Source of the DNA: Acidimicrobiia bacterium
GTDB taxonomy: Bacteria > Actinomycetota > Acidimicrobiia > IMCC26256 > PALSA-610
Direction: 5' to 3'
DNA length: 64,000 nucleotides
Assembly: GCA_026002935.1 (NCBI GenBank)
Contig: BPGH01000001.1
Span: 171,965-235,964, forward strand
The translations under genes were made by a program, and so were the position numbers. Shown piece by piece: positions 1 through 50,448 of this stretch (position 1 is the first letter of the stretch; every line of letters begins with the position of its first letter). A model generated the notes under the pieces. That model did not search any database, was not told the DNA's origin, and worked only from the letters and a program-made list of their open reading frames with translations.

Positions 1-1176
1 CTCTGGGGCGCGACGACCGGGTTGGGCGTGGCGTTCGGCCCGATCTGCGGTGGCTGGCTGCTGGAGCACTTCTGGTGGGGCTCCGTCTTCCTCGCCCTCG
101 TACCGGTCGCGCTGTTCGTCGCGTTGCTCGTGGCGGTCGCCGTGCCGACCTCACGGGACCCCGACGCCCCGCCGGCGGACGTCGTCGGGCTCGTCCTGTC
201 CACGGCCGCGATCGGGACCCTCGTCTTCTCGATCATCGAGGCGCCCGAGCGGGGCTGGACGAGCGTCGCGACGCTCGCGGGCTTCGGCGCGGCCGTCGCG
301 CTCGGCGCGACCTTCGTCAGGTGGGAGCGCGACCACCGGACGCCGATGCTCGACGTGAGGCTGTTCGCGAACCCCCGGTTCTCGGCGGCGAGCGGGGCGG
401 TCGCGGTCGCCTTCTTCGCCCTCTTCGGCTTCGTCTTCCTGGTGACGCAGTACTTCCAGTTCCTGAAGGGGTACACGCCGCTCGGCACCGGCATCCGGCT
501 CCTGCCGGTCGCGGCGTCGATCGCCGTCGCCTCCGTCGTCGGCACCCGGCTGGCCGTGCGCATCGGGAACAAGGCCGTCGTCGCCGGCGGCCTCGTCTCG
601 CTGACCGCCGGCTACCTGTGGGTGGCGAGCGCCTCGGCGGCCACGGGCTACGGCGAGATCGTCGCGCAGATGATCCTGCTGGGTGGCGGCATGGGCCTCA
701 CGTCGGCGCCCGCGACGGAGGCGATCATGGGCGCGGTCACCACGGAGAAGGCGGGGATCGGCTCGGCGGTCAACGACGCCACGCGTGAACTGGGAGGGAC
801 GCTGGGCGTCGCCGTCATCGGGAGCGTGTTCGCGAGCCTCTACTCGCAGCGCCTGGCCGACCTCCCCGCCTTCCTGCCCACCGAGGCCCGCGACGCGGCC
901 GCCGAGTCCGTCGGTGCCGCGTTCGTCGCAGCCGACCGCGTCGAGGCGGCCGGGCTCCCCGGCGTGGCAGAGGCGCTGCGCGCCGTGGCATCGGACGCCT
1001 TCTTCAGCGGCTTCGCGGTCGGCTGCCTCGTCGCGGCCGGGGTCGCGGCACTCGGTGCGCTCGCCGCCGTCCGGCTGCTGCCGTCGCGGCCCGCGCCGCC
1101 GGCCCACGACGGGACAGCCGCCGGAGCTCCCCGTGGGCCAGGGGCGGACGTGGCGCTCGCGCAGTCGCCTACTTGA
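1..1176 (+). CDS. MFS-type transporter (drug:H+ antiporter-like); N-terminus lies outside the window
   Basis: The frame of ORF 22..1176 stays open back to nt 1 ([23 protein letters not shown]...). It has a long series of hydrophobic helices typical of MFS exporters. TGA at 1174-1176. Confidence 0.75.
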
Positions 1177-1564
1177 GCTCGACCGTCGCGCCGGACTCCT
1201 CGAGCTTGGCCTTCGCCTTCTCGGCGTCCTCCTTCGACACCTTCTCGAGGACCGGCTTCGGGGCGCCGTCGACGAGGTCCTTGGCCTCCTTCAGGCCGAG
1301 GCTCGTCAGCTCGCGCACGACCTTGATGACCTGGATCTTCTTGTCGCCGGCGGCGGTGAGGACGACGTCGAACTCGTCCTGCTCCTCGGCGGCCTCGGCG
1401 GCGGCCGCGCCCCCGCCGGCGGCCGGGGCGGCCGCGGCGACCGCGACCGGGGCGGCCGCCGTCACGCCGAACTCCTCCTCGAAGGCCTTGAGGAACTCGT
1501 TCAGCTCCAGGACGGTCATGTTCTTGAAGACGTCGAGCAGCTCCTGCGTGCTCATGGTCGCCAT
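1169..1564 (-). CDS. rplL: 50S ribosomal protein L7/L12
   Basis: Intact 131 aa ORF: [34 protein letters not shown]...[50 protein letters not shown]. It lies directly downstream of rplJ. Confidence 0.95.
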
Positions 1565-1579: not shown

Positions 1580-2405
1580 TCAGTCGGTCTCGGTGGGTGC
1601 GGCCTCGGCCCCCGGCGTCCCGGTCCCGCCCGGGTCCGCGCCCGCCCCGGCGGCGGGGGCCCCGGGCGCTCCGGGTGCGTCGGCCCCGTCCGCGTCCCCC
1701 GTCTCCCCGGCGGCGGGGGCCCCGGCAGCGGGCTCGGCAGCGGGGGCCCCGGCAGCGGGCTCGGCAGCGGAGGCCTCGGCAGCGGGGGCCTCGGCAGCGG
1801 GGGCCCCAGCAGCGGGTTCGGCGGCGCGGGCGCCGGCGGCCGGCTCGCCGGCGGCGACGCGCTGGTCGACGTAGGCCTTCAGCCCGTACGCGAAGTTGCG
1901 CGTGAACGCCTGGAACAGGCCCGCCGCCTTCGTGAGCGGGGCCTGGAAACCGCCGGCGAGGCGGGCGAGCAGCTCCTCGCGCGGCGGCACGTCGGCGAGC
2001 GCCTCGACGTCGGCGCGGCTGAGCAGCCGCGCCCCCAGCAGGCCCCCCTTCACCACCAGGTTCGGGTTGGTGCGGGCGAAGTCGCGCAGCGCCTTCGCGG
2101 CGGTCACGGCGTCGCCCACCGTCGCGACGGACGAAGGCGATGGCGACCGGGCCCTCGAGCTGGCCGAGGATGTCGTCGAGGCCCACCTCGGCGGCGGCCC
2201 GCCGGGCGAGGGTGTTCTTGAAGACCTTGTAGTCGGTCGCCGCCGGCCGCAGCGCGGCCCGCAGCTGGGCGATCTCGGCGACGGTCAGCCCGCGGTACTC
2301 CGTGAGCACGGCGGCGTCCGCCGCCTCGAGCCGGGTGCGGATGTCGTCGACGACGGCGGCCTTGCGCCGGAGCTGCGCGCTGTCGCTCGGTGCCCTGGTC
2401 GGCAT
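1580..2405 (-). pseudogene. rplJ: 50S ribosomal protein L10; reading frame broken once as assembled; carries a long Ala/Pro/Glu-rich C-terminal tail
   Basis: The N-terminal part (...EYRGLTVAEIAQLRAALRPAATDYKVFKNTLARRAAAEVGLDDILGQLEGPVAIAFV) is in the frame starting at 2405. The rest (GDAVTAAKALRDFARTNPNLVVKGG...) is in ORF 1580..2119. The junction is at 2120-2129. Length 826 nt is not a multiple of 3. Confidence 0.85.
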
Positions 2406-2601
2406 GTCGTTCCCCTCGGTGGCGGGCCGGGCGCCCGCGCGCCGCGCCGGGGCGGCGCGGCTCCGAGGGTCGCCTGGTCCGGCGGGCGGTGGCCCATTAC
2501 CTCGTGTCGAGACCGGAGGTCTTCGGCGGTCGATTGACGGGCGGAGATGGTAGCACCCGCCGGGCGGGCGCCGCCGTGCCGCCGCCCGCGGCGCGAGCGG
2601 G
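2406..2601 (-). promoter_or_regulatory. rplJ 5' leader region, a candidate L10 autoregulatory leader
   Basis: A 196 nt non-coding gap lies between the rplA stop and the rplJ start, with a locally lower-GC patch (2490-2550). An L10 leader is known at this position in other bacteria. I did not verify a fold. Confidence 0.25.
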
Positions 2602-3297
2602 TCAGTGCCCGTCGACGCGGGCGTCGGGGGCGATCTTCACGCCGGGGCCCATCGTCGACGACGCGGTCACCGCCTTCGATGTAGCGACCCTTGGCGGCCG
2701 CGGCTTGGCCCGGCACGATCTCCTCGAGCCACGGCCGTCAGTTGGCCACGAGCGCGCGGCACGGGAAGCTGGCCTTGCCGATCGGCACGTGCACGTTGCC
2801 GTAGCGGTCGGTGCGGTACTCGACCTTGCCGCCCTTGAACTCGGCGACCGCCTTGCCGACGTCGTTGGTGACCGTGCCGGTCTTCGGGTTCGGCATCAGG
2901 CCGCGCGGGCCGAGCACCCGGCCGAGCTTGCCGACCTCGGCATCAGGTCGGGCGTGGCGATCGCGACGTCGAAGTCGAGGCAGCCGCCCTCGATCTGGGC
3001 GGCGAGGTCGTCGGCGCCCACCACGTCGGCACCCGCCTCGCGCCTCGGCGGCCGCCTCGCCCGCGGCGAACACCGCCACCCGGACGTCCTTGCCGGTGCC
3101 CGGCGGCAACGGGACGGTGCCCCGCACCATCTGGTCGGCCTTGCGGGGATCGACGCCCAGCCGGAACGCGACCTCGACCGTCTCGTCGAAGCTTCGCGTG
3201 GCCAGCTCTTGACGAGCTCGAAGGCCTCGGCGGGCTCGTGCTGGCGCTGGCCGGTCGTAGCGCTTGGACGCGTCGAGTACGCTTGCCGTGTCGTCAT
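2602..3297 (-). pseudogene. rplA: 50S ribosomal protein L1, heavily frame-disrupted as assembled (about 12 small indels)
   Basis: L1 motifs are scattered over all three minus-strand frames: [28 protein letters not shown] / [50 protein letters not shown] / [33 protein letters not shown] / [57 protein letters not shown] / AAAKGRYI / TMGPGVKI. ATG at 3297, TGA at 2602-2604. Confidence 0.85.
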
Positions 3298-3378
3298 CGC
3301 TCGACTCCTTGCGGCTCCCTCGTGCGGGCCCGTGCGGTCCGGCCGGGCGAGGTCGTCCCGGCCGCGGGCGGCCGAGCG

Positions 3379-3805
3379 CTAGTCGACGACCTCGACGCCC
3401 ATCGACCGGGCGGTGCCCGGCGACCTGCGCCTTGGCCGCCTCGAGGTCGTCGCGTTCAGGTCGGGCATCTTCGTCTCGGCGATCTCGGAGCTGGTCCTCG
3501 GTGATCGTCGCCGACCGTCTCGCGGCCCGGGTTCTGCGACCCCTTCTCAGCCCGGCGGCCTGGCGCGAGCAGCACCGGCGTCGGCGGCGTCTTCGTGACG
3601 AAGGTGAACGACCGGTCCTCGTAGATGGTGATCTCGACCGGGATCACCGTGCCCCGCTGCGCCTCGGTGCCGCGTTGTACGCCTTGCAGAAGTCCATGAT
3701 GGCCACGCCGTGCGGCCCGAGCGCGGTGCCGACCGGCGGGGCGGGCGTCGCCGCCCCCGCGTCGATCTGGATCTTCACGATCGCCGCGACCTTCTTCTTG
3801 GCCAT
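3379..3805 (-). pseudogene. rplK: 50S ribosomal protein L11, frame-disrupted as assembled (about 7 small indels)
   Basis: [45 protein letters not shown] starts at 3805. It continues as [68 protein letters not shown] and [10 protein letters not shown] in shifting frames. TAG at 3379-3381. Confidence 0.85.
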
Positions 3806-3835
3806 CGTCCTTCGCGTTCTCTCGTGGGTGGGTGC

Positions 3836-4659
3836 CTAGAGCTTGGCGACGTCGGAGAACTCGAGCTCGACCGGGGTCTCGCGCCCGAAGATGTTCACGA
3901 GCACCTTGAGCTTCGACGGTCGACGTCGATCTCGCTGATGAGGCCGTTGAAGTCGGCGAACGGACCGGTCACTTGACCCGCACCGTGCTCGCCGACCTCG
4001 TACTCGAGGCGCGGCCGCACCTTCTTCTCCGCCGCCGGCCCCTCCGCCTTCTCACCGGTGCCGAGGATGTCCTCGACCTCCTTGCGCGACAGCGGGGTGG
4101 GGCGGGCGCCGCTGCCGACGAACCCGGTGACGCCCGGCGTGTTGCGCACGACGTACCAGGCGTCGTCGTCGAGCGACATGCGCACGAGGAGGTAGCCGGG
4201 GAACACCTTCTTCTGCACGACCACCTTGCGGCCGCCCTTGAACTCGACGACGTCCTCCATCGGGATGACGACCTCGAAGATCCGGTCCTCCACGTTCATC
4301 GACCGGACGCGGCTCGCGAGGTTCGACTTCACCTTGTTCTCGTAGCCGGACGTAGGTGTGCACGACGTACCAGCGGCCCGGCCGGTCGTACGGGCTCGGC
4401 TCGGGCTCGGGCACCTCCTCGACCTCGAGCAGCTCGGCGTCACCGAGGTCCTCGGGGTCGAGCGCGGCGGCACCGCCCTCGTCGCCGGACGCGGTGATCT
4501 CGGCGCGGTGGTGTCGGACGCGTCGTCGCCGGTCGCGGCGTCCTCGACGGCCACGGCGGCCTCCGGCGCGGAGGTCGACGCGCCGCCCGCGCGCTCGTCG
4601 GCGCCGGGCGCCTCGGCCGCCCCGCCGGGCTCGTCGTCGGTGTCGAAGAGGTGTGCCAT
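3836..4659 (-). pseudogene. nusG: Transcription termination/antitermination factor NusG with an acidic N-terminal extension; frame-disrupted as assembled
   Basis: MAHLFDTDDEPGG... starts at 4659. PYDRPGRWYVVHTY is in a second frame. SGYENKVKSNLASRVRSMNVEDRIFEVVIPMEDVVEFKGGRKVVVQKKVFPGYLLVRMSLDDDAWYVVRNTPGVTGFVG...[16 protein letters not shown] is back in the first frame. [25 protein letters not shown] is in a third frame, ending at TAG 3836-3838. Confidence 0.85.
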
Positions 4660-4931
4660 CAGCCGAAGATCAGCTCCACGAGGTTGAGCGAGGCCCAGTC
4701 GAACCCGAAGATGATCGCGGTCATCACGATCACGCCGATGATCACGACGATCGTCGACTGGACGACCTCGCCGCGCGTCGGCCACGCGACCTTCTTCATC
4801 TCGCCGGGACCTCGCGCAGGTACTGGCGCGGGCCGGTGCGCTCGGCCTGCGGCGCCGGGCGCGCGGCGCTCGGGCGCGCGCGGCCGGTCGACGCCACTGC
4901 GCGCCATCTGCCGCTTGGTCTGTCGGTTCAT
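4659..4931 (-). CDS. secE: Preprotein translocase subunit SecE
   Basis: MNRQTKRQMARSG...EMKKVAWPTRGEVVQSTIVVIIGVIVMTAIIFGFDWASLNLVELIFG has a single C-terminal TM helix. It sits in the canonical position between tRNA-Trp and nusG. Its TGA overlaps the nusG ATG by 1 nt. Confidence 0.8.
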   Translation of the reverse strand: MNRQTKRQMARSGVDRPRAPERRAPGAAGRAHRPAPVPARGPGEMKKVAWPTRGEVVQSTIVVIIGVIVMTAIIFGFDWASLNLVELIFG

Positions 4932-4981
4932 CAGGTCGCTCCGGACGCGAGGCGGCACCGGGACGTCGTCGCCCGGCACCC

Positions 4982-5054
4982 GCAGGGCAGGAGGGACTCG
5001 AACCCCCAACCGCCGGTTTTGGAGACCGGTGCTCTGCCAGTTGAGCTACTGCCC
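4982..5054 (-). tRNA. trpT: tRNA-Trp (anticodon CCA)
   Basis: The reverse complement reads AGGGCAGTAGCTCAACTGGCAGAGCACCGGTCTCCAAAACCGGCGGTTGGGGGTTCGAGTCCCTCCTGCCCTG. The acceptor stem pairs perfectly (AGGGCAG/CTGCCCT) and the anticodon loop is CTCCAAA. Confidence 0.9.
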
Positions 5055-5153
5055 TCCGGCCGGGGGCCGAGCACCCAGGTTAGCAGCGCGCCCTCGGGCG
5101 GCCCCCGGCGGCCCGGCGCGGCGACCGCCCCTCGCCCGCGCGACCGGGACCGC

Positions 5154-5507
5154 TCAGGCGACGGCGCGCCGGCGGGACCGGGCGATGATCAGGGCGGCGG
5201 CGGCGCCGGCGGCGAGGGCGGTGCCGACCGCCGCGCCGCCGTACGCGAGGCGGCGCGTCGTCACGTAGGTGCGCAGCGCGCCCCGCTCGGCGGCCTCGGT
5301 GATCGCGGCGAGCGTCTCGCCCAGCAGCCCCGGGGTCGGCTCGACGTAGCGCGCCCGCAGCAGCTCCAGCGTCCGCACGAGCTTGCGGTACCGGGCGACC
5401 TCCGCCTGGCACCGCAGGCACTGCTCGACGTGCCGGCGCACCTCCAGGTCCGTCGCGTCGTCGTCGACCAGGCCGGGGAGCACCGCCGCGACCTCGTCAC
5501 ACCGCAT
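5154..5507 (-). CDS. Anti-sigma factor (zf-HC2 type) with a C-terminal TM helix
   Basis: 117 aa with an H-x3-C-x2-C motif (HVEQCLRC) near the N-terminus and the hydrophobic segment LAYGGAAVGTALAAGAAAALII. It overlaps the upstream sigma gene by 11 nt. Confidence 0.7.
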   Translation of the reverse strand: MRCDEVAAVLPGLVDDDATDLEVRRHVEQCLRCQAEVARYRKLVRTLELLRARYVEPTPGLLGETLAAITEAAERGALRTYVTTRRLAYGGAAVGTALAAGAAAALIIARSRRRAVA

Positions 5508-6057
5508 GGGCCTCCGCTCCTTCCTCGTACAGCACGTCGCGCAGCTTCCGGCGCGCGCGGTGCAGCCGCACCTTCGCCGCCGCGACGGAGATGCCGAGCT
5601 CCTCGGCGATCGCCTCGTGCGGGAGGCCGTACACGTCCTTCAGCACGACGATCGTGCGGAGCTTCGGCGGGAGGTCGTCGACGGCGGCGCCGATGCGGGC
5701 GAGCACGTCGGTGGACTCGGCGGCCGCCGCCGGCTGGGCCTCGGCCCGGGGGTCGGCCGGCTCGGCGACCTCGTCGATCGGCTCCGCTCGGTGCCGGCGC
5801 CGCTTGCGCATGTGCGTCGCCGCCGCGTTGGCCGTGATGCGGTACATCCAGGTCGAGAACGCGGCGTCACCCCGGAACTTCCCGATGGCCCGCCAGGCCC
5901 GCAGGTAGGCGTCCTGCACCACGTCCTTCGCGTCCTCCTCGTTCCCCGTCAGGCGCCGCGCGAGCGTGAAGGTGTCGACGAAGGTGCGCCGCACCAGCTC
6001 GTCGAACGCGTCCCGGTCGCCGCGGCGGGCGGCGCCGATCAGCTCTTCGTCGTCCAA
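5497..6057 (-). CDS. ECF (group IV) RNA polymerase sigma factor
   Basis: 186 aa. Region 2 reads DAFDELVRR...EDAKDVVQDAYLRAWRAIGKFRGDAAFSTWMYRITANAAATHMRKRRR. Region 4 reads LPPKLRTIVVLKDVYGLPHEAIAEELGISVAAAKVRLHRARRKLRDVL. TTG start with a GGAAGG ribosome-binding site. Confidence 0.85.
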   Translation of the reverse strand: MDDEELIGAARRGDRDAFDELVRRTFVDTFTLARRLTGNEEDAKDVVQDAYLRAWRAIGKFRGDAAFSTWMYRITANAAATHMRKRRRHRAEPIDEVAEPADPRAEAQPAAAAESTDVLARIGAAVDDLPPKLRTIVVLKDVYGLPHEAIAEELGISVAAAKVRLHRARRKLRDVLYEEGAEAHAV

Positions 6058-6158
6058 CGGGTCGCCTTCCAGGCCGGGTGAACGGGTCGGACCCCGGGGC
6101 TGTGGAAAAGGTTACGCCCCGGGTCACCCCGGGGCGTCGGACCCTGCGGCCGGGCCGA

Positions 6159-6175
6159 GGCGGGCGGTTCCCGCC
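6159..6175 (-). terminator. GC hairpin downstream of rpmG
   Basis: GGCGGG-cggtt-CCCGCC forms a 6 bp stem with a 5 nt loop, 14 nt after the rpmG stop. There is no U-tract. Confidence 0.3.
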
Positions 6176-6188
6176 GGCCGGGGCCGGG

Positions 6189-6353
6189 CTAGCGCGTCTC
6201 CTTGTGGAGGGTGTGGCGCTTGTCCCAGCGGCAGTACTTCTTCATCTCGATGCGCTCGCGGTCGTTCACCTTGGACTTGACGGTGATGTAGTTGCGGCGC
6301 TTGCACTCCTCGCAGGCGAGGGTGACCTTCACGCGCTTGTCGGACTTCGGCAC
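6189..6353 (-). CDS. rpmG: 50S ribosomal protein L33
   Basis: (V)[53 protein letters not shown], 54 aa. GTG at 6353 preceded by GGGGAG. In the ORF track it is fused to the tuf C-terminus only because tuf has a frameshift. Confidence 0.9.
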
Positions 6354-6364
6354 TGCTCGCTCCC

Positions 6365-7565
6365 CTACTTGATGATCTTGGTGACCCGGCCCGCAGCCGA
6401 CCGTCCGGCCACCCTCACGGATCGCGAACCGCAACCCCTCATCCATCGCGATCGGCGCGATCAACTCCACCGTCATCTCCGTGTTGTCCCCCGGCATCAC
6501 ACATCTCCGTCCCCTCCGGCAACCGGATCGTCCCCGTCACATCCGTCGTCCGGAAATAGAACTGCGGCCGGTAATTCGAAAAGAACGGCTTGTGACGACC
6601 ACCCTCCTCCTTGGTCAACACGTACACCTGCGCCTCGAACTCCGTGTGCGGCGTGATCGACCCCGGCTTCGCCAACACCTGACCCCGCTCCACCTCCTCC
6701 TTCTTCGTCCCCCGCAACAGCGCACCGATGTTGTCCCCCGCCTGACCCTCATCGAGCAGCTTCCGGAACATCTCCACCCCGGTCACCGTCGTCTTCTTCG
6801 TCGGCCGCAACCCCACGATCTCCACCTCGTCACCGGTCCGGACGACCCCCTGCTCCACCTTCGGCCGGTCACCACCGTCCCCCGACCCGTGATCGAGAAC
6901 ACGTCCTCGATCGGCATCAAGAACGGCTTGTCCAGATCCCGCACCGGCTCCGGCAAGTACGCATCCACCGCCTCCATCAACTCCATCGATCTGAGTCCTG
7001 CCCACGCGCTCGTCCCCCTCCAACGCCTTCAACGCCGACACCCGCACCACCGGCGCGTCATCACCCGGGAACTCGTACTCGTTCAACAACTCCCGCACCT
7101 CGAGCTCCACCAGCTCCAGCAACTCCTCATCGTCGACCGCGTCCGCCTTGTTCAACGCCACCACGATCGCCGGCACCCCCACCTGACGCGCCAACAACAC
7201 ATGCTCACGCGTCTGCGGCATCGGACCATCCGCCGCCGCCACCACCAAAATCGCCCCATCCACCTGCGCCGCACCCGTGATCATGTTCTTGATGTAATCC
7301 GCATGCCCCGGCATATCCACATGCGCGTAATGACGGTTCTCCGTCTCATACTCCACATGCGCGATCGATTGATCGTGATCCCCCGCTGCCGCTCCTCCGG
7401 AGCCTTATCAATCTGATCGAACGCCGTGATACGCCATTCCCCGGCATCCCGATCCGCCAACACCTTCGTGATCGCCGCCGTCAACGTCGTCTTCCCATGA
7501 TCAATATGACCCATCGTCCCCACGTTCACATGCGGCTTCGTCCGCTCGAACTTCTCCTTGGCCAT
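6365..7565 (-). pseudogene. tuf: Elongation factor Tu, five frame-breaking insertions as assembled, atypical codon usage
   Basis: [36 protein letters not shown]...ERQRGITIN starts at 7565. It continues as [42 protein letters not shown]..., [57 protein letters not shown]...[58 protein letters not shown] and AGRVTKIIK. Breaks lie near 7366, 7003, 6860, 6502 and 6395. 1201 nt minus 7 inserted nt gives 398 codons. Confidence 0.9.
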
Positions 7566-7639
7566 GGGTGCTGCTCTTTCGCGTCGGACCGGGGTCCCGG
7601 TGTCGGTCGGGTGTGTCGGCGAGCGGACCTGGTCTCGCG

Positions 7640-7716
7640 TGGTAGCGGAGGCGGGACTCGAACCCGCGACCCCACGATTATGAGCCGTGTGCTCTGACCA
7701 ACTGAGCTACTCCGCC
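7640..7716 (-). tRNA. metT: tRNA-Met (anticodon CAT), elongator type, CCA encoded
   Basis: The reverse complement reads GGCGGAGTAGCTCAGTTGGTCAGAGCACACGGCTCATAATCGTGGGGTCGCGGGTTCGAGTCCCGCCTCCGCTACCA. The anticodon stem is CACGG/TCGTG, without the three G-C pairs of an initiator. Position 1-72 is a G-U pair. Confidence 0.85.
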
Positions 7717-7751
7717 AACGACGGAGCGGCGCCCGCAGACGCCGCTCCGCG

Positions 7752-7824
7752 AGCCCCCTTACGGACTCGAACCGTAGACCCCTTCCTTACCATGGAAGTG
7801 CTCTGCCGACTGAGCTAAGGGGGC
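7752..7824 (-). tRNA. thrT: tRNA-Thr (anticodon GGT)
   Basis: The reverse complement reads GCCCCCTTAGCTCAGTCGGCAGAGCACTTCCATGGTAAGGAAGGGGTCTACGGTTCGAGTCCGTAAGGGGGCT. It forms a clean cloverleaf with anticodon loop ATGGTAA. Confidence 0.9.
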
Positions 7825-7877
7825 GAGGCCCGGTAAGGATAGCCGCCGCGACCGCCCCGACGGACCCGGAGACGCCC

Positions 7878-8369
7878 GTGCTGCGAACCCGCCTGGTCGA
7901 GCCCCGCGACGCCGAGGCGATCCGGGGGATCTACAACGTCGAGGTGCTCGAGTCGACCGTCACCTTCGACCTCGTGCCGCGCTCGCCGGCCGAGCAGCTC
8001 GCCTGGGTGGAGGCGCACTCGGGCGGCCACCCGGCGATCGTCGCGGTGGACGCGGCCGACCGGGTGCTCGGCTTCGCGTCGCTGTCGCCCTACCGGCCGC
8101 GACCCGCCTACGCGACCTCGGTCGAGGACTCCGTGTACGTGGCCCGCGACCACCGGGGCCGCGGCGTGGGCCGCCGGCTGCTCGGCGACCTCGTCGAGCT
8201 CGCGCGGGACCACGGGTTCCACACGGTGATCGCCCGCATCGTCGGCGGCCACGAGGCGTCGATCGCCCTGCACCGGGCGTGCGGGTTCGAGCCGATCGGC
8301 TGCGAGCGCGAGGTCGGCCGGAAGTTCGGCCGCTGGCTCGACGTGGTGCTCATGCAGCGCATGCTGTGA
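7878..8369 (+). CDS. GNAT family N-acetyltransferase (phosphinothricin acetyltransferase-like)
   Basis: 163 aa. RDHRGRGVGRRLLGDLVELARDHGFHTVIARIVGGHEASIALHRACGFEPIG matches the acetyl-CoA-binding Q/RxxGxG/A core of PAT-like GNATs. Confidence 0.8.
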   Translation: MLRTRLVEPRDAEAIRGIYNVEVLESTVTFDLVPRSPAEQLAWVEAHSGGHPAIVAVDAADRVLGFASLSPYRPRPAYATSVEDSVYVARDHRGRGVGRRLLGDLVELARDHGFHTVIARIVGGHEASIALHRACGFEPIGCEREVGRKFGRWLDVVLMQRML

Positions 8370-8402
8370 GCGGCGCCGCGCCGCGGGCCCGCCGGCGCGT
8401 CG

Positions 8403-8488
8403 TGGTGGGCCGGGTTGGATTCGAACCAACGTAGCGAGAACGCAACGGGTTTACAGCCCGTCCCCTTTGGCCACTCGGGTACCGACCC
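8403..8488 (-). tRNA. tyrT: tRNA-Tyr (anticodon GTA), long variable arm, CCA encoded
   Basis: The reverse complement reads GGGTCGGTACCCGAGTGGCCAAAGGGGACGGGCTGTAAACCCGTTGCGTTCTCGCTACGTTGGTTCGAATCCAACCCGGCCCACCA. Confidence 0.9.
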
Positions 8489-8540
8489 GGGTCCTACGAT
8501 AGCAACCCGCTTCGCCGCGCCTTCCGGGAGGAGCACCGCG

Positions 8541-9029
8541 ATGCCGAGCTTCGACGTGGTCTCCGAGATCGACCTGCAGGAGGTCCGCAACGCGGTCGAC
8601 CAGACGATGCGCGAGCTCGCCACCCGCTTCGACTTCAAGGGGACCGACAGCACCGTCGAGCTGAAGGACCGCGCGATCCAGCTCGAGTCGGCCACCGAGG
8701 ACCGGCTGAAGGCCGCCGTGCAGGTCCTCGAGGAGAAGCTGGTCCGGCGGAAGGTGTCGCTGAAGGCCCTCGAGCACGGCAAGGTGGAGGAGGCGGCCAA
8801 GGGGCGCGCCCGCCAGCAGATCACCCTCCAGGCCGGGATCAGCACGGAGAAGGCCAAGGCGATCGGGAAGTTCCTGAAGGACCTCGGGCTGAAGGGCGTC
8901 CAGCACCAGGTGCAGGGCGACCAGCTGCGCGTCACCGGCAAGAAGAAGGACGACCTCCAGCGGGCGATCCAGGCGCTGCGGGACCACGACTTCGGCATCC
9001 CGTTGCAGTTCACGAACTTCCGGGACTGA
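8541..9029 (+). CDS. yajQ: YajQ family (UPF0234) nucleotide-binding protein
   Basis: MPSFDVVSEIDLQEVRNAVDQTMRELATRFDFKGTDSTVELKD...LRVTGKKKDDLQRAIQALRDHDFGIPLQFTNFRD, 162 aa. ATG at 8541 preceded by GGGAGGAG. Confidence 0.85.
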   Translation: MPSFDVVSEIDLQEVRNAVDQTMRELATRFDFKGTDSTVELKDRAIQLESATEDRLKAAVQVLEEKLVRRKVSLKALEHGKVEEAAKGRARQQITLQAGISTEKAKAIGKFLKDLGLKGVQHQVQGDQLRVTGKKKDDLQRAIQALRDHDFGIPLQFTNFRD

Positions 9030-9047
9030 GCCGCCGGGCGGCCCGCC

Positions 9048-10397
9048 TCACCCGACGACGGCGTACAGCCTCCACGGCCCGTCGACCCCCTTCAGCTCGT
9101 GCTCGCCACGGTCGGCGAACCGGAGACCCGACCCGGCCACCAGGTCGACGACGGTGCGCGACACGAGCACCTCGGACGGGCCCGCCGACTGCGCCACCCG
9201 CGCGCCGATGTGCACCGTCAGCCCGCCGATGTCGTCGCCGCGCAGCTCGACCTCGCCGGTGTGGAGCCCGACGCGCACGGTGAGGCCGAGCGCCGCGGCA
9301 CCGTCGACGACCGCCCGCGCGCAGGAGATGGCACGCGCCGGCCCGTCGAAGGTCGCCACGACGCCGTCGCCGGTCATCTTCACCTCGGACCCGCGGTGGG
9401 CGGCGAGCTGCGCCCGGATCATCGCGTCGTGGGCGTCGAGCAGGTGCCGCCAGGCCCGGTCGCCGAGCCGCGTGAGCTGTTCCGTCGAACCGACGAGGTC
9501 GGTGAACATCACGGTCGCCAACGCGCGGTCGGCGGGCGGCGTCGACCGGCTCCCGGTCACGAACTCCTCGATCTCGCGCGCGACGGCCTCGTGGTCGCCG
9601 ACGTAGGCGACGGGGTCCTCACCGGCCAGCTCGACCGCGCGGGCGCCCGGGATGCGCGCGACGACGTACGCGACCCGCTGCCGCAGGCGGTCCGCATCGG
9701 GGGACGCCAGCGGACGGGTGAGCACGAGCGTCGGCACCCGGATCGACGGGAGCACCACCCGGAGATCGGACGCCATGCCGGTGCGGTAGACGGCGCCCGC
9801 GACCGACGGGCTCATGCCGCGCCGGCGCGCCCCGCGCCACCACCTCGCCAGCGTCTCGTCCCCGGCGAGGCCCGGGAACGGGAGCGGGGTCGGCCCTCCC
9901 CGCAACCACTCGTCGCGGATCGCGTCCAGGAACCGCTCCTGCTCCTGCGGTGAGAGCCCCCAGGGGTAGTCGCGGTCGGACCTCCACCGGGCGTTCGGGT
10001 TGAACAGCACCAGGCGGCTCACGCGTCGCGGCACGCTCGCGGTGAGCAGCATGCAGACCACGCCCGCCGGCATGTCGGCGGCGAACACCGTGACCGCGGT
10101 CGCGCCCGCGGCGTCGAGGACGGCGACCGCGTCGTCGAGCCAGTGCTCCCACGTCGTCTCGTCGATCCGCGCGATCGGGTCGGAGAGCCCCGTGCCGCGC
10201 CGGTCGAACCGGATCACGCGCGAGAACGCCGAGAGCCGCTCGATGAACGGTCCGCACGTCGGGCCGGCGATCTGGTCCTCGACGGAGATGCCGTGCGCGA
10301 AGACTGCGAGCAGGTCGGGCCCGGCACCCGTCACCTGGTAGGCGACGTACGCACCGTCGGTCGTCTCGGCGTAGCGGGTCCCGGCCGACGGCACCAC
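9048..10397 (-). CDS. Alpha/beta-hydrolase domain fused to a class III adenylate/guanylate cyclase domain
   Basis: The N-terminal half looks like an alpha/beta hydrolase. The C-terminal part, ALATVMFTDLVGSTEQLTRLGDRAWRHLLDAHDAMIRAQLAAHRGSEVKMTGDGVVATFDGPARAI...VRVGLHTGEVELRGDDIGGLTVHIGARV, is a cyclase homology domain. The start is placed at the GTG pair 10392-10397, just below the htpX stop. Confidence 0.8.
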   Translation of the reverse strand: MVPSAGTRYAETTDGAYVAYQVTGAGPDLLAVFAHGISVEDQIAGPTCGPFIERLSAFSRVIRFDRRGTGLSDPIARIDETTWEHWLDDAVAVLDAAGATAVTVFAADMPAGVVCMLLTASVPRRVSRLVLFNPNARWRSDRDYPWGLSPQEQERFLDAIRDEWLRGGPTPLPFPGLAGDETLARWWRGARRRGMSPSVAGAVYRTGMASDLRVVLPSIRVPTLVLTRPLASPDADRLRQRVAYVVARIPGARAVELAGEDPVAYVGDHEAVAREIEEFVTGSRSTPPADRALATVMFTDLVGSTEQLTRLGDRAWRHLLDAHDAMIRAQLAAHRGSEVKMTGDGVVATFDGPARAISCARAVVDGAAALGLTVRVGLHTGEVELRGDDIGGLTVHIGARVAQSAGPSEVLVSRTVVDLVAGSGLRFADRGEHELKGVDGPWRLYAVVG

Positions 10398-10467
10398 GGG
10401 ATTCTGCCCCGCCCGGCCCCTCCGGGCGACCGCCCCGCCGCGCGACCGGCCCCGGGCCGTGGCGGGG

Positions 10468-11316
10468 TCAGACGGTGCTGTAGGCGCGCAGGCGGCGGAT
10501 GCGCTCCTGCGTCGGCGGGTGGGTCGTGAACAGGTTGGCGAACTGCACCCGGCGGCCGGTGAGCGGGTTGACGATGAACGCCGAGGCGTGGGCCGGGTCG
10601 ACGTCCATCGGCACGCGCCGGGCGTAGCCCTCGATCTTCTCCAGCGCGCGGGCGAGCGGCTCGCCGGTGCCGAGCAGCTCGGCGCCACCGCGATCGGCCT
10701 CGTACTCGCGCGACCGGGACAGGGCCATCTGGAGCAGGGCCGCCGCGATCGGGGCGAGCACCATCAGCAGGAGCGCGCCGACCACGTTGTCGTCGTCGTC
10801 ACGGTTCCCGCCGCCGAACAGGGCGCCCCAGAACGCGATGCGCGCGACGAACATGATCGCCATCGCGACGGCGGCAGCCACCGACGAGATCAGGATGTCG
10901 CGGTGGCGGACGTGCGAGATCTCGTGCGCGAGCACGCCGCGCAGTTCGTCGCGGTCGAGCACCTGCAGGAGCCCCTGGGTGACGGCGACCGCCGCGTGCC
11001 GGGGGTTGCGCCCCGTGGCGAACGCGTTCGGCTGCATCGCCGGGCTGACGTAGATCGCCGGCATCGGCATCTCGGCGCGCTGCGTCAGCTCCCGCACCAT
11101 CGCGTACAGCTCGGGGGCCTCCGCCTCGGTGACCGGCCGGGCGCCGGCCGCCCGCACGGCGAGCTTGTCGGAGAACCAGTAGGAGCCGCCGACGAACACG
11201 AGCCCGACGACGAGCCCGATCACGAGGCCACCGGTGCCGAACAGCGACCCGATGCCCATGAAGAGCCCGCCGAGCGCGGCGAGCAGCACGGCCGTCTTGA
11301 TCGAGTTCTTCACCAT
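10468..11316 (-). CDS. htpX: Zinc metalloprotease HtpX (M48 family)
   Basis: [23 protein letters not shown]... has the HEISH zinc motif in [16 protein letters not shown] plus [14 protein letters not shown]. The protein is 282 aa, starting at ATG 11316. Confidence 0.9.
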
Positions 11317-11340
11317 CGACCTCTCCAACGCCGCGCGAAC

Positions 11341-11395
11341 GCCGCGGGTTCCCGGACCGACGCTACACGGGCGCCGCGGGTTCCCGGACCGACGC
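11341..11395. repeat. Direct repeat: two perfect 23-nt copies of GCCGCGGGTTCCCGGACCGACGC
   Basis: Copies lie at 11341-11363 and 11373-11395 (period 32 nt). Confidence 0.9.
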
Positions 11396-22508: not shown

Positions 22509-22509
22509 G

Positions 22510-24039: not shown

Positions 24040-24057
24040 CGAGTGAATTCCCCTCCG

Positions 24058-26301: not shown

Positions 26302-26310
26302 GAGCGCCGG

Positions 26311-26610: not shown

Positions 26611-26620
26611 CGATCGCTCC

Positions 26621-28680: not shown

Positions 28681-29892
28681 CGGTCGATGTCCCCCAGGAT
28701 GAAGTACAGGCTCGCGAGGATCGTGATCACGTCGGGCACGTAGACGCCGCGCAGCAGCCACGGCAGGATCGAGACGTTGCTGAACGACGCCGACCGGATC
28801 TTGACGCGGAACGGGCCCGTGGCGCCCTTCGAGACGACGTAGTAGCCCATCTCGCCCAAGGGGTTCTCGGTGTTGACCCAGACCTCGCCCTCGGGAACCT
28901 TGATGATGCGCGGGACCTTCGCCATGATCGGGCCGCTCGGCATCCCGTCGACGAGCTGCAGCACCATGCGCGCCGACTCACGTGTCTCCTGCAGCCGCAC
29001 CCAGTAGCGGGCGAACGAGTCGCCGTCGGGGTGGGTCCACACCTTCCAGTCGAGCTGGTCGTACACCAGGTACGGGTCGCCGTCGCGCCGCAGGTCCCAG
29101 TCGACACCGCTCGCGCGCAGGTTGGAACCGGAGACGCCGTAGGCGGCACCCAGCTCGGACGGGATGATCCCGATCGAGCGGGTCCGCTGCTCGAAGATCG
29201 GGTTGCCGACGACGAGGTCCTCGAACACGTCGCACGACTCGAGCACCTTGCGCATCGCCTCGCGGCAGTCGGCGATCCAGCCCCACGGCAGGTCGTCCTT
29301 GAGCCCGCCGATCCGGTTGAAGTTGGGGTGGAACCGGCCGCCCGTGACCGCCTCGATCAGGTTGAGCACGTACTCCCGGTCGCGGAAGCCGTAGAACGCC
29401 GGCGTGATGGCGCCGACCTGGAGTCCCATCTCGCCGAGGAACAGCAGGAACGTCGCGATCCGCGACAGCTCGGTGAGCGTCGTGCGGATCCACTGGCGCG
29501 CGCGGCGGCGCCTCGATCCCCATGAGCCGCTCGGCCGCGTCGACGAACGGCACCTCGTTCGCGAACGACGACAGCCAGTCGATGCGGTTGATCAGCGTCG
29601 TGATCTGCGGGTAGGTGCGGAACTCGGTCAGCTTCTCGTAGCCCCGGTGCATGTAGCCGATCACCGGGTCGGCCGCGACGACGCGCTCGCCGTCGAGCCG
29701 CACGACGAGGCGCAGCGTGCCGTGGGTGGCGGGGTGCTGCGGCCCGATGTTGAGCACCATGTCGCCGGTGTCGAGCTCGACGTTCATCTGGCTGTCGGCC
29801 AGGTGCCGGTACAGCGTCGGGTCGACGTCGAAGCTCGGGAGGCCGCCGGGCGGCGGCAGGTCGGGGGGACGGTTGGTGCCGGTGGTCGTCAC
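28677..29892 (-). pseudogene. nuoD: NADH-quinone oxidoreductase subunit D, operon 1; one frameshift as assembled
   Basis: The N-terminal part (VTTTG...[44 protein letters not shown]...MGIEAPPRA) is in one frame. [32 protein letters not shown]...[13 protein letters not shown] is in ORF 28677..29429. One extra nt lies near 29495-29497. Length 1216 nt. Confidence 0.85.
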
Positions 29893-36869: not shown

Positions 36870-38409
<1,540 letters not shown>

Positions 38410-43093: not shown

Positions 43094-45771
43094 CGCAACG
43101 TCTCCACGCGCAGGTCGGTGACCGGCTGGCCCGTGTCGACGAGCAGCGCCGCGCCCGTGCCGTCGGCCGCGAAGTCGAGCGATGCGACGCCGGCCGGGAC
43201 CTCGGGGTCGGCGACGACGGGGTAGGTGAGGGAGCCGTGCGACGACACGAGCCGCACCTCGTCCCCGTCGGCGACCCCCAGTCGCGACGCGTCGTGCGGG
43301 TTGACGCGCAGCGACGGCCGCTCGAAGCGCTCGTGCAGCACGGGCGTCTCGGTGACGATGCGCCCACCGTCGTACAGCCTCCGCCCGCTCACGAGGCGCA
43401 GAGCGTACGCGTCACGCGCGGGCGCGGCGGCCCCGCCTGCCGCACCGTCCCAGACGTGCAGCGCGGGCGCGTCGGCGGCGCGCTCGCTCGCGGCGTGCGC
43501 GTGCTCGACCGCGTGCGCGGCCTCCTCCGGGTCCTCGCCGGGACCGGCCTCCGCCGCCGCGTCCGCGGCGCGGGCTCCCCGCTCGCCGCGGGCGCGCCCG
43601 CCGGGGCGGCGCCCCCGGCGCGGATCGGGTCCCACGAGGTGCCGGCGCCCTCCTCCGCCAGGATCGACAGGCCGCGGGTGCGCACGACGATCTCGCCGAG
43701 GTGCTCGCGCAGTGGGAGCACGACGCCGTCGCGCGCGCGCCGGACGAGGGCGGCGGTGGCGCCGAGCGCCGCCGGCGCCACGGCGGCGATCTCGTCGGTG
43801 ACCTCGTCGACCGTGGCGAGGTCGAAGTCGGCCCCGAGGCGGTACGCGAGCTCCGACGCGATGCGCCAGTCGTCCATCGCGGTGCCCTCGGGCGCGACGC
43901 GCCGCGCGACCCGCTGCACGCGCCCCTCGAGGTTGGTGACGGTGCCGTTCTGCTCGCCCCAGACGGTGCAGGGCAGGAAGACGTCCGCGCGCGCGGCCGA
44001 CTCCGACCGGAAGGCGTCCACGGCGACGACGAACGGCACGCCCTCGAGCGCGCGCCGGGCGAGCAGGGCGTCGGGGTGGTCGAGCAGCGGGTCGGCGCCG
44101 AGCAGCACGAGCACGTGGACGCGGCCCTCGGCCGCCGCCCGCAGGATCCCGTCGGCGTCGAGGCCGCGCCCCGCGGGGACACCGCCCCACCGCTGCGTGA
44201 ACCACTCGCGCCCGGCGTCGAGCGTGACGCGGCCGGGCAGGAACCCGGGGGCCAGCCCCATCTCGAGCGCGCCGTGGACGTTGCCCCGGCGCAGCGCGGA
44301 CAGGACCCGCACGTCGACCCCGTCGAGCGCCCCGAACGCCGCGATCGACCGCACCGTCGCGTCGGGCGCCTCCGCGACCGACGGCCGGCCGGCGACCACC
44401 ACGAGCGGGCCGCCGCGCTCGCGTGCCGTGCGCGCCGCGAGCTCGACGACGTCGGCCCCCACCGGCTCGCCCGGCACCCGGCGGGCGACGTGCGCCGCAT
44501 AGGGGGCCAGCGAGCCGCCGACGGGCGTGCAGTCGAAGAGCGGCACGCCGAGGTCCTTCGCCGCGCGGCGCAGCCGGAGGAAGAGGACCGGCACCTCCTC
44601 GCGCGGGTCGGGACCGAGCACGACGATCGCGCCCGCCCGGTCGCAGTCGTCGATCTCGGCACGCCGGACCCCGAGCACGACCTCGGCGGGGAGCCCGTCG
44701 CCCATCTGGCAGTCGACGTGGTCGGTGCCGATCACGCCCTTCGCGAGCCGCGCCCACGCGTACGCGTCCTCGTTCGTGCCGCGCGCGCCGCCGAGCACCG
44801 CGATCGCGCCCGGGCCGTGCATCCGGAGCACCTTGCGGATCTCGCCGGCCGCGGCGTCGAGCGCCTCGGGCCACGACACCTCCCGCAACTCGCCGCCTAC
44901 CCGCAGGTGCGGTTCGCGCACGCGGTCGTCGGCGTGCACCCAGTCGATGCCGTAGCGGCCCTTGTCGCACAGCCAGCCGTGGTTCACCGGGTCGAGGTCG
45001 ACGCCGAGGAGCCGAACGATCCGGTTCGACGACGACTGCACGGCACCGCGGCAGTGGACCGAGCAGGTCGTGCACGACGTCTCCGCGGTCGCGAGGTCCC
45101 ACGGGCGCGCCTTGAAGCGGTAGTGCCGGGCGAGCAGCGCGCCGACAGGGCAGATCTGCACGGTGTTGCCGGAGAAGTACGACTCGAACGGCTGCTCGGC
45201 GAAGTTCAGCACCTGCGTGCGGTCGCCGCGCGAGACGAAGTCGATCAGGGGGTCGCCGGCGATCTCCTCCGCGAAGCGCGTGCACCGCGCGCACTGGATG
45301 CACCGCTCGCGGTCGAGGAGGATCATGTTGGACAGCGGGATCGGCTTCTCGTAGTGGCGCTTCTCCTCCACGAAGCGCGACTCGCCGGGGCCGAACGCGA
45401 GCGTCTGGTCCTGCAGCGGGCACTCGCCGCCGCGGTCGCAGACCGGGCAGTCGAGCGGGTGGTTGATCAGCAGGAACTCCAGCACGCCTTCCTGGATCTT
45501 CTCGACCGCGTCGGTCCGGGTGCGCACGACCATCCCGTCGGTGACCGGCGTCGTGCACGCGGGCGGGAACCCGCGCACGCCCTCGACCTCGACGAGGCAC
45601 ATGCGGCACATGCCGACCGGCTTCATCCGCTCGTGCCAGCAGAAGCGCGGGATGTAGACGCCGTGCTCCTGCGCGACCTTGATGAGCAGCTCGCCCGGCC
45701 GCGCCTCGACGGTCTCGCCGTCGATCGTGACGCTGACGGTCTGGCCTGCTCCTTCGGCGCCTCGGTGGACG

Positions 45772-45775
<4 letters not shown>
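43090..45775 (-). pseudogene. nuoG: NADH-quinone oxidoreductase subunit G, operon 2; two frameshifts as assembled
   Basis: The GTG at 45775 (VTSTEAPKEQA) is in one frame. TVSVTIDGETVEARPGELLIKVAQEHGVYIPRFCWHERMKPVGMCRMCLVEVEG...HPLDCPVCDRGGECPLQD... is in ORF 43389..45626. The C-terminus (...ALRLVSGRRLYDGGRIVTETPVLHERF...DLRVETLR) is in ORF 43090..45609. Breaks lie near 45740-45745 and about 43560-43640. Confidence 0.85.
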
Positions 45776-47573: not shown

Positions 47574-48861
47574 CGGTCCACCTCGCCCATGATCGGGTCG
47601 ATGCTCGACACGATGGCGACCGCGTCGGCGACGAGCGTCCCCTCGGCCATCGGCTCGGCCGACTGGAGGTTGTAGAACGACGGCCCGCGGATGTGCATCC
47701 GCACCGGCCGGCTCGACCCGTCGCTCACCAGGTAGCAGCCGATCTCGCCGCGGGGTGACTCGACCGCGACGTACGTCTCGCCCGGCGGCACCTTGAACCC
47801 CTCCGTGAAGATCTTGAAGTGGTGGATCAGCGCCTCCATCGACTCGTCGATCCGGGCGCGCGGCGGCGGGGTCACCTTCTTGTCCTGCACGCGGTAGTCG
47901 CCGCGGGCATGCGCTCGACGCACTGGCGCACGATCTTGGCGGACTCGAGGATCTCGTAGAGGCGGATGCGGTACCGGTCGAAGGTGTCGCCGTTGGTCGT
48001 GTACACGACGTCGAAGTCGACCTCGTCGTAGGGCAGGTACGGCTGGGCCTTGCGGAGGTCCCACGGGAAGCCGGTGGAACGCAGGATCGGCCCGGTGATG
48101 CCGCGGGCGAGGCACTCCTGCGTGGTGATCACGCCGACGCCGACGGTGCGCTCGCGCCAGATGGGGTTCTCCGACAGCAGCTCGTCGTACTCGGCGACGC
48201 CGGCCTCGACCGAGTCGCAGGTGCGCAGCACGGCCTCCTGCCAGCCGTCGGGGAGGTCGGCCGCGACGCCGCCGGGCCGGATGTAGTTGCAGTTCATCCG
48301 CAGGCCGGTGATCGTCTCGAAGAGCCGCAGGCACTCCTCGCGCTCGCGCCAGCCGTACAGCATCATCGACACCGCGCCGATGTCCATGCCGTTGGTCGCC
48401 TGGAACAGCAGGTGCGACGACATGCGGTTGAGCTCGACCATCATCATGCGGATCCACTGGGCCCGCGGCGGCACCTCGACACCCAGCAGCTTCTCGGTCG
48501 CGAGCGAGAACACGAGCTCGTTGGAGAAGTTCGCGGCGTAGTCCATGCGGGTCACGTTGGTCGTGCCCTGCAGGTAGGTGAGCTCCTCGGCCGTCTTCTC
48601 CATGCCGGTGTGCAGGTAACCGATCACCGGCTTGATCCGCAGGACCTCCTCGCCGTCGAGCTCCATCATGAGCCGCAGCACGCCGTGCGTCGACGGGTGC
48701 TGCGGGCCCATGTTGATGATCATGGTGTCGCCGAGCTCGTCCTCCGGCCAGACGCCGCCGGTCATCACGAGCTCGCGCGTGCGCCGCGTGGCCCGCAGCT
48801 CCTGCGCGCCCTCGTCGGTGCGCCCCGCGAGGCGCTCCTCGTCCGCGTAGTCCCACGTCAT
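47570..48861 (-). pseudogene. nuoD: NADH-quinone oxidoreductase subunit D, operon 2; one frameshift as assembled
   Basis: [11 protein letters not shown]...[44 protein letters not shown]...[10 protein letters not shown] is in ORF 47872..49341. [36 protein letters not shown]...[14 protein letters not shown] is in ORF 47570..48856. The break is near 47899-47906. Confidence 0.85.
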
Positions 48862-49439
48862 CGCGGCGCCGGGTCCCCCTTGAAGGTGACGGGGACGCGC
48901 GCGACCGGGAAGTCCTTGCGCAGCGGGTGCCCCTCCCAGTCGTCGGGCATCAGGATGCGCGTGAGGTCGGGATGGCCCTCGAAGACGATCCCGAACATGT
49001 CGTAGACCTCGCGCTCGGGGAAGTTGCACCCCGGGTACACGGGCGTGAGCGACGGCACCGTCGGGTCGTCGGCCGGCACCTGGCAGATCACGCGGATGCG
49101 CCGGTTGCGCGCGTGCGACAGGAAGTTGGCCACGACCTCGAACCGCTCGAGCGGCTCGACGCCCTCGGGCCGCCAGCGGGAGCCGTCGAGCAGGTGGTCG
49201 ACGGCCGTGACGTCGACGCAGGACGTGAACTGCTGCTCGTCGCGCAGGAACGCGCCGACCTCGGCGAACACCGCGCGCCCGACGTACACGACGGCCTGCC
49301 CGTGCGACGTGACCGCCACCGCGCCCGGGAACCGCTCGCACACGGCGGCCGCGACCTCGTCGGCCGCGGCGGCCGCCGCGGGGGCACCCTCCCCGGCGCC
49401 GGGTTCGTGATCCCGTTCACGAGCGGTGTCGTCGGCCAC
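48858..49439 (-). CDS. nuoC: NADH-quinone oxidoreductase subunit C, operon 2
   Basis: ...[47 protein letters not shown]... The proposed start is the GTG at 49439. Confidence 0.8.
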
Positions 49440-49995: not shown

Positions 49996-50448
49996 CAGGC
50001 CGCCTCCCCCGCGTCGGCGGGCGCGCCGGGCGTGAGCACCGGGCGCTTCGTGCGCAGCACCGGCCCGGGCTCGCGCCGGACGAGGCTGCGCACCGGCCCC
50101 CACTCGAGCGCGCCGACCGACAGCAGGTAGCCGAACGGCACGAGCAGCACCAGCACGAACACGCTCATCGCGACGAGGCCGAACAGCCCGAGGTCGCGGA
50201 ACACCGTCGAGAAGGGGTAGAGGAAGACGATCTCGACGTCGAGCACGATGAAGCTCATGCGCGACCAGGTAGAACTTGACCGGGAAGCGCTCGGGCGGCT
50301 CCTCCTCCGGCACGATCCCCGACTCGTAGGGCGCCTGCTTCGCCGCGTGCGGCCGGCGCGGTGCGAGGAGCTGCGACGCGACGAACGACAGCAGCACGAA
50401 CGCGACCACCAACCCGGCCATGACGAGGATCGGCAGGTAGTCGGCCAA
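49995..50448 (-). pseudogene. nuoA: NADH-quinone oxidoreductase subunit A, operon 2; one frameshift as assembled
   Basis: (TTG)[63 protein letters not shown] is in one frame. [46 protein letters not shown]... is in ORF 49995..50258. One extra nt lies near 50259. Confidence 0.85.

Follow-up and report, generated by a model that had tools for sequence, protein, structure and literature searches.

In Escherichia coli, the tufB-type cluster carries tRNA genes, tuf, secE, nusG, rplK, rplA, rplJ, and rplL on one strand. The same genes share the minus strand in the stretch studied here, 64,000 nt of contig BPGH01000001.1 (assembly GCA_026002935.1, positions 171,965 to 235,964) from an Acidimicrobiia bacterium; this whole stretch (G+C, 73%) is referred to below as the window, and positions are counted from its first letter. 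Unlike the E. coli cluster, the window has rpmG, a gene pair for an extracytoplasmic function (ECF) sigma factor and its anti-sigma factor, and tRNA-Trp between tuf and secE, giving the order tRNA-Tyr, tRNA-Thr, tRNA-Met, tuf, rpmG, ECF sigma/anti-sigma, tRNA-Trp, secE, nusG, rplK, rplA, rplJ, rplL. The insertion is as in 80 Acidimicrobiia loci that we kept for comparison. The order is canonical for tuf-secE-nusG-rplKAJL, and full-length products can be recognized after repair of the reading frames, the repaired products being 85 to 100% identical to intact same-species orthologues (EF-Tu, ∼89%; secE and rplL, 100%). The broken frames that make such repair necessary are real in the deposited sequence but are almost certainly metagenome-assembly errors and not dying genes. 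The reading that we favor, at a probability of about 0.85, is a mixed-template consensus artifact, produced by foreign reads or mixed templates in an ordinary native cluster.

Frame breaks were located with our own protein-to-DNA dynamic-programming aligner with explicit frameshift states, run first against the intact open reading frames (ORFs) of relatives and again against same-species genes from two short-read contigs (L092 and L095). A reference-free codon-usage hidden Markov model (HMM) was also run over the whole window. Between positions 7442 and 2117, there are roughly 32 to 34 frame-breaking indels (7 in tuf, 2 in secE, 5 to 7 in nusG, 7 in rplK, 10 in rplA, and 1 in rplJ), and a further 8 indels affect the tuf leader and the nusG-rplK and rplK-rplA spacers (Table 1). 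The damage forms two patches, ∼7637 to 6365 and ∼4860 to 2117, with the worst part at 3714 to 2600. By contrast, rplL, rpmG, tRNA-Trp, and the sigma and anti-sigma genes have no frame-breaking indels; the absence of events from these ∼1.9 kb shows that the lesions are not spread over all cluster genes. Outside the cluster, the HMM found only four breaks in the other ∼56 kb, all in nuo genes. The density is thus ∼6 per kb in the cluster versus ∼0.07 per kb outside it, a roughly 70- to 80-fold excess that is far beyond chance. The cluster indels are of both signs and 1 to 3 nt long, most lie away from homopolymers, and their sequence contexts have no common motif. A homopolymer origin was considered and rejected, since the contexts do not fit it except at the second copy of nuoD.

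The original prediction, made from the letters of the window alone, had described dense frame-breaking indels in rplJ, rplA, rplK, nusG, and tuf, and the frameshift-aware alignment that it proposed confirms them. Its estimates of at least one break in rplJ, about 7 in rplK, and 5 or 6 in nusG agree with our counts. That rplA is broken many times also holds, although its figure of about 12 comes down to 10, and the 5 breaks given for tuf are joined by a compensating pair at 7442 and 7428. A proposed 10-nt event was not found; the largest length events, of 12 and 39 nt, keep the frame and lie where nusG and rplJ are of low complexity. The original prediction had placed the damage within those five genes, between 2100 and 7400, but it also reaches secE and three noncoding stretches (spacers or leaders) and begins at 7637, in the tuf leader. 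For the same reason, the claim that the interleaved genes read cleanly survives for rplL, rpmG, tRNA-Trp, and the sigma/anti-sigma pair and fails for secE. The isolated frameshifts predicted in nuoA, nuoG, and both copies of nuoD are the very four that the HMM found.

TABLE 1 Features of the window and their frame-breaking or spacer indels (+, inserted nucleotides; −, deleted nucleotides)
Feature	Coordinates	Strand	State	Indels and remarks
tuf leader	7566..7639	-	Damaged	+3 at 7637, +1 at 7624, +1 at 7613, with 4 mismatches (versus same-strain L094); tRNA-Met to tuf start, upstream edge of first damaged patch
tuf (EF-Tu)	6365..7565	-	7 frame-breaking insertions	7442 (+2), 7428 (+1), 7369 (+2), 7006 (+1), 6860 (+2), 6501 (+1), ∼6392 (+1); 1201 nt instead of 1188
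rpmG (L33)	6189..6353	-	Intact	100% identical to same-species contigs
ECF sigma	6057-5497	-	Intact	
Anti-sigma	5507-5154	-	Intact	
tRNA-Trp	4982..5055	-	Intact	
secE	4659..4931	-	Compensating indel pair, ORF open	∼4859 (+1), ∼4807 (−1); 17 codons out of frame
nusG	3836..4659	-	5 to 7 indels	∼4488-4498 (+2), 4351 (+1), 3984 (+1), 3974 (+2), 3916 (−1); two further uncertain, ∼4524 and 4520
rplK (L11)	3379..3805	-	7 indels	3670 (−1), 3566 (+1), 3548 (−1), 3512 (+1), 3485 (−2), 3450 (−1), 3416 (+1)
rplK-rplA spacer	3298..3378	-	4 indels	3374, 3360, 3343, 3311; ∼70% identity to L092
rplA (L1)	2602..3297	-	10 indels	3278 (−2), 3250 (+1), 3207 (−1), 3040 (−2), 2940 (−1), 2740 (−1), 2729 (+1), 2713 (+1), 2700 (−1), 2677 (+1)
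rplJ (L10)	1580..2405	-	1 indel	2117 (+1)
rplL (L7/L12)	1169..1564	-	Intact	
nuoD copy 1	28681..29890	-	Isolated frame break	∼29506 (HMM)
nuoG	43097..45772	-	Isolated frame break	∼43573 (HMM)
nuoD copy 2	47574..48870	-	Isolated 1-nt deletion	47905
nuoA	50000..50443	-	Isolated frame break	∼50257, apparently +1 in GTCGCGCATG

The evidence that carries our reading comes from contigs assembled from other samples, which we found by exact-protein look-ups (the sigma factor, RpmG, YajQ, and NuoE were among the queries) and which are short, all but one being under 5 kb. One contig (L094) belongs to the same strain and matches the window with no mismatch and no gap over 3.75 kb (7640 to 11390); in the next 150 nt (7484 to 7637, the tuf leader and the N terminus), the two differ by 9 mismatches and 3 indels. 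Four others (L081 to L084) are 99.8 to 100% identical to the window from rpmG to the anti-sigma gene (6370 to 5240). Two of these (L081 and L082) reach into tuf, where identity over the final 100 nt is ∼90%, with one indel, and where their own copy is in frame; in this comparison, the drop in identity falls at the tuf stop codon. The damage thus comes in sharp-edged blocks that adjoin essentially identical sequence. Over the sigma and anti-sigma genes, the window shows 0 to 3 single-nucleotide polymorphisms and no indels relative to four independent short-read contigs. A further contig (L095) encodes an intact 395-aa EF-Tu and agrees with L094 at its 5′ end and with L082 at its 3′ end.

The downstream patch is covered by a short-read contig of the same species (L092), which has intact nusG, rplK, rplA, and rplJ and, at its ends, partial secE and rplL. 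Its identity to the window is 96 to 100% in secE, the nusG core, the rplA-rplJ spacer, rplJ, and rplL, whereas it is only 69 to 92% in rplK, the rplK-rplA spacer, and rplA, and every indel of the patch covered by L092 is a difference from L092. Across all seven contigs (L081 to L084, L092, L094, and L095), the gene copies are in frame, complete in L092 and L095 and partial elsewhere, with flanks 97 to 100% identical to the window.

Individual genes of this patch are affected to very different degrees. In rplK, identity to L092 falls to 84 to 93% from 3714 downwards. In rplA, it is 78 to 91%, with a clean island at 2770 to 2904 (99 to 100%); a stricter frameshift penalty reduces the rplA count to 6 indels plus one in-frame stop, which arises when the set at 2740 to 2700 is left unrepaired. 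Apart from its single insertion, rplJ is 94 to 98% identical to L092, with in-frame length differences of 12 and 39 nt in the Ala/Pro/Glu-rich tail (∼1755 to 1817) that may reflect either natural variation in repeat length or additional errors of the consensus. This part belongs to a long low-complexity tail rich in Ala, Pro, Glu, and Gly in the C-terminal part of L10 (1583 to 1860). Where L092 covers rplL, the two are identical over 81 of 81 aa and over 99 to 100% of nucleotides. Once its two indels are repaired, secE agrees with L092 in 115 of 115 aa. The conserved YLREV motif of SecE lies in the out-of-frame stretch (4807 to 4859), and both ORF-based checks and the original prediction missed the pair. 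The nusG gene differs from L092 by 12 nt in frame at ∼4604, and its two uncertain indels lie in the acidic low-complexity N terminus. NusG has an N-terminal extension of ∼90 aa (4400 to 4659), acidic and of low complexity, whose length differs between close relatives; the frameshift count there is therefore uncertain.

Substitutions are concentrated where the indels are: against the same-strain and same-species contigs, identity is 99.6 to 100% up to the edges of the damaged blocks and 80 to 92% within them. Relative to same-species alleles, tuf has diverged by ∼8% and rplA by 12 to 22%, whereas the leaders and spacers at 7640 and above, 6190 to 6057, and 2600 to 2406 have diverged by only 0 to 2%. 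As the damaged genes diverge more than the adjacent noncoding DNA, neutral decay in place is impossible. To look for donors, tuf, rplK, and rplA were divided into 60-nt pieces (a 90-nt version was also run). A distant relative beat the same-species allele in 28 of the 79 60-nt pieces, at times with a perfect match (e.g., 60 of 60 nt to L075 at 7270 to 7329), and the best donor switched every 60 to 200 nt within the damaged genes; in undamaged genes, the same-species contig was always the best match. Mismatches to L092 at codon positions 1, 2, and 3 number 2, 0, and 20 in the undamaged part of rplJ (first 190 codons), as natural variation under selection would show. In the damaged genes, substitutions fall on all codon positions, numbering 30, 24, and 43 in tuf; 30, 23, and 43 in rplA; and 6, 6, and 16 in rplK. 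By these patterns of sequence, the damaged blocks mix alleles of native and of truly foreign origin with plain errors.

The tuf gene illustrates this blend at the protein level. The window allele differs from the intact L095 allele by ∼97 substitutions and 8 insertions; every tuf event is an insertion, one of them a 3-nt insertion at 6989 in addition to the frame-breaking ones. Nonsynonymous changes at invariant EF-Tu positions accompany the indels: the motif is DMPGH in the window but DCPGH in the native allele and relatives and DAPGH in mycobacteria, and PDB EF-Tu sequences have either DCPGH or DAPGH. The repaired window EF-Tu matches PDB EF-Tu sequences at an E value of 1e−217. In a manual tally, ∼16 of the 42 amino acid differences from the native EF-Tu are residues found in mycobacterial EF-Tu. 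Some of the differences are thus genuine foreign alleles, and others are errors. We also considered whether, taken as a whole, the window protein lies nearer to mycobacterial EF-Tu than the native protein does; this proved false, as the repaired protein scores ∼10 bits below the native L095 protein against every PDB EF-Tu. The shift at ∼6392 joins the tuf C terminus to rpmG as one 103-aa ORF (6189 to 6500).

On the reading that we favor, the deposited sequence of both patches would be that of no single genome but the consensus of a mixed read pile. Long conserved stretches (1.2 kb of tuf and 2.3 kb of nusG-rplK-rplA) would recruit reads or read segments from co-occurring Actinomycetota during long-read assembly or polishing or, alternatively, would be collapsed as an intergenome repeat. 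The consensus caller would then output a mosaic of alleles, both native and foreign, and of outright errors, with many 1- to 2-nt indels, while short conserved islands (tRNAs, rpmG, and rplL) and the lineage-specific sigma/anti-sigma pair would recruit no foreign reads and stay clean. The locus resembles a chimeric or mispolished consensus of a long-read metagenome-assembled genome (MAG) in its dense 1- to 2-nt indels, its sharp-edged patches, its alleles from other taxa, and the intact state of independent short-read assemblies. It is unlike classic Nanopore error, in which indels are scattered and fall in homopolymers, as the window indels are mostly off homopolymers and come with 8 to 30% substitution divergence. 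Off-homopolymer indels combined with such divergence argue for mixed templates rather than base-calling error.

Whether such patches go with the sequencing technology was assessed among the relatives. Of 59 related loci in the HMM comparison, 29 come from Microflora Danica and 30 from short-read assemblies. Microflora Danica MAGs were built from Nanopore reads only, with Flye assembly, one round of Medaka, and no short-read polishing (PMC12313526). Candidate frame breaks number 0.39 per kb in the former set versus 0.03 to 0.05 per kb in the latter, and frame-break patches are about ten times commoner in the Nanopore-only than in the short-read MAGs. Frameshift counts in the 80 kept loci were restricted to rplK, rplA, rplL, tuf, and the sigma gene, those for nusG, secE, rplJ, and the anti-sigma gene being too noisy owing to low-complexity ends and to upstream junk in stop-to-stop reference ORFs. 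For rplK, rplA, and rplL, they gave 11, 16, and 7 events, respectively, in Microflora Danica loci versus none in any of the three genes in short-read MAG loci. Very dense patches occur in Microflora Danica loci such as L028, L021, L034, L066, and L013, with up to 38 breaks in 20 kb (L028), and touch many kinds of genes; almost no breaks are seen in short-read MAG loci from this lineage.

The isolated breaks in the nuo genes are of another character. At the second copy of nuoD, the window reads GCCC-GCGG against GCCCGGCGG in L098, with one G lost and no local excess of substitutions; L098 encodes an intact NuoD and is evenly 98.5% identical to the window around the break. This deletion (CCC-GCGG) looks like a classic Nanopore indel. 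The window holds two separate complex I (nuo) operons, at 21022 to 31416 and 35353 to 50443, and the nuoD paralogues have ∼66% nucleotide identity. All four isolated breaks lie in these operons, which make up ∼45% of the noncluster sequence; the probability of this by chance is ∼0.04.

Several observations weigh against the mixed-template reading. Damage is only weakly related to cross-species conservation at 90-nt resolution (Spearman coefficient, 0.25), and gap openings in the window show no correlation with conservation at that resolution. Some highly conserved pieces are clean (2770 to 2904 in rplA, the tRNAs, rpmG, and rplL). We also rejected the idea that conserved marker genes are a general target in Nanopore MAGs, as the 29 Microflora Danica loci have 0.396 breaks per kb in the cluster versus 0.384 outside it. 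The original prediction had offered, as the first of two explanations and the one that it leaned towards, a wrong consensus specifically in the most conserved genes: the wrong consensus is borne out by the intact same-species alleles, the sharp drop in identity, and the mosaic, whereas the general preference for conserved genes is not. In addition, L092 is a 97 to 98% relative and not the identical strain, and two tuf contexts may have been joined in L095. We infer that the window is itself a long-read metagenome assembly, and the mixing of reads is deduced from the footprint that it would have left in the sequence. The step at which mixing would occur, and the choice of foreign reads or a collapsed interspecies repeat over a plain low-coverage patch, are likewise matters of inference.

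That last possibility, a low-quality or low-coverage long-read patch in which random errors from a few reads survive and no foreign DNA is involved, we regard as unlikely. It would account for the events in secE, the nusG core, and rplJ, which are clean single indels in otherwise 97 to 100% identical sequence, and for the spread of frame-break patches over all kinds of genes in related Nanopore MAG loci; many window-specific EF-Tu residues, such as DMPGH, also match nothing known. In tuf, rplK, and rplA, however, the divergence of 8 to 30% per 100 nt is more than the errors of raw reads from modern Nanopore sequencing would produce. Random errors would also not be expected to match a distant relative better, and sometimes perfectly, in so many of the 60-nt pieces, nor to leave the third codon position with an excess of changes. 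Finally, the limits of the clean island are exactly those of rpmG and the lineage-specific sigma/anti-sigma pair.

The second explanation in the original prediction was a decaying second copy of the cluster. We consider this very unlikely, also in a narrower form in which only tuf is redundant, as a tufB-like duplicate; in either form, intact copies elsewhere in the genome would make real pseudogenes tolerable. With several frameshifts per gene and a single in-frame stop, the locus does recall the pseudogene clusters of reductive evolution, and the tRNA-tuf-(rpmG)-secE-nusG layout is like that of E. coli tufB, which has a similar tRNA-tuf-secE-nusG arrangement. Two tuf contexts may also exist in the lineage, as tuf is followed by rpsJ in L095 and preceded by fusA in L085. 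Among close relatives, we saw three contexts in all: tRNA-Met-tuf-rpmG (window, 6365 to 7716), fusA-tuf-rpmG (L085, 1 to 3409), and tRNA-side flank-tuf-rpsJ (L095, 1 to 1700). Either the lineage has two near-identical tuf copies (tufA/tufB-like) or the short-read contigs have been joined through tuf.

Against a second copy stands, first, the position of the cluster. Same-locus relatives were gathered by a sigma-factor scan with one genome per species, in which the matches were Acidimicrobiia MAGs, the nearest with 82% amino acid identity. The scan confirmed 313 stretches with a relative of the window's sigma factor, from which the 80 loci were kept. Gene order around the sigma gene is the same in these 80 loci as far as the contigs extend, with tuf upstream of rpmG in ∼30 of them. 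The window shares this order and its flanks with them and, since the order is common to the relatives, its cluster is the lineage's native locus rather than an additional copy. Within the 64 kb, none of the cluster genes occurs a second time. An Rfam scan of the window, run in search of leaders or other RNAs behind the pattern, gave only the four tRNAs. The 80 loci come nearly all from MAGs of Acidimicrobiia or other Actinomycetota, and the sigma/anti-sigma pair occupies the same place between rpmG and tRNA-Trp-secE-nusG in each of them (L001 to L080, near position 10001).

The sequence itself is equally at odds with decay. The spacers, leaders, secE, rplJ, and rplL are 97 to 100% identical to contigs with intact rplK, rplA, nusG, and tuf, while the broken genes are 8 to 30% diverged, above the adjacent noncoding DNA. 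At the local rate, ∼14 events would be expected in rpmG, the sigma and anti-sigma genes, and rplL, which have none. In pseudogene clusters, one would not expect essential, single-copy genes to be broken with interleaved genes untouched and same-species copies intact, nor substitutions that form a multidonor mosaic, which is not a pattern of decay.

There is a smaller chance still that the broken sequence is real DNA of a living lineage, either a recently inactivated tufB-like tuf or recombinant mosaic ribosomal genes rescued by recoding. It is barely credible that genuine frameshifts are bypassed by programmed ribosomal frameshifting, transcriptional slippage, or RNA editing so that the genes are still expressed, as nothing beyond the indels themselves speaks for it, while they are of both signs, are 1 to 3 nt long, do not lie at homopolymers or slippery heptamers, are lacking from the same-species contigs and short-read relatives, and come with changes at invariant EF-Tu positions. 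Together, real pseudogenes and recoding account for a few per cent of our expectation.

The finding matters only as a caution about the quality of marker genes taken from long-read MAGs. The tuf, nusG, rplK, and rplA genes are standard markers for phylogenomics and genome completeness, and mosaic, frameshifted markers can lower completeness estimates, give fused or truncated gene calls, and bring foreign alleles into alignments. An automatic annotator would call the tuf-rpmG fusion ORF as a chimeric protein, and secE is a reminder that an ORF can stay open over indels that compensate each other. Judged from the 59 loci compared, such patches appear to be about ten times as frequent in Nanopore-only soil MAGs as in short-read MAGs. 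As for the organism, it almost certainly has normal EF-Tu, SecE, NusG, L11, L1, and L10, and the cluster that underlies the damaged sequence is an ordinary, known one.

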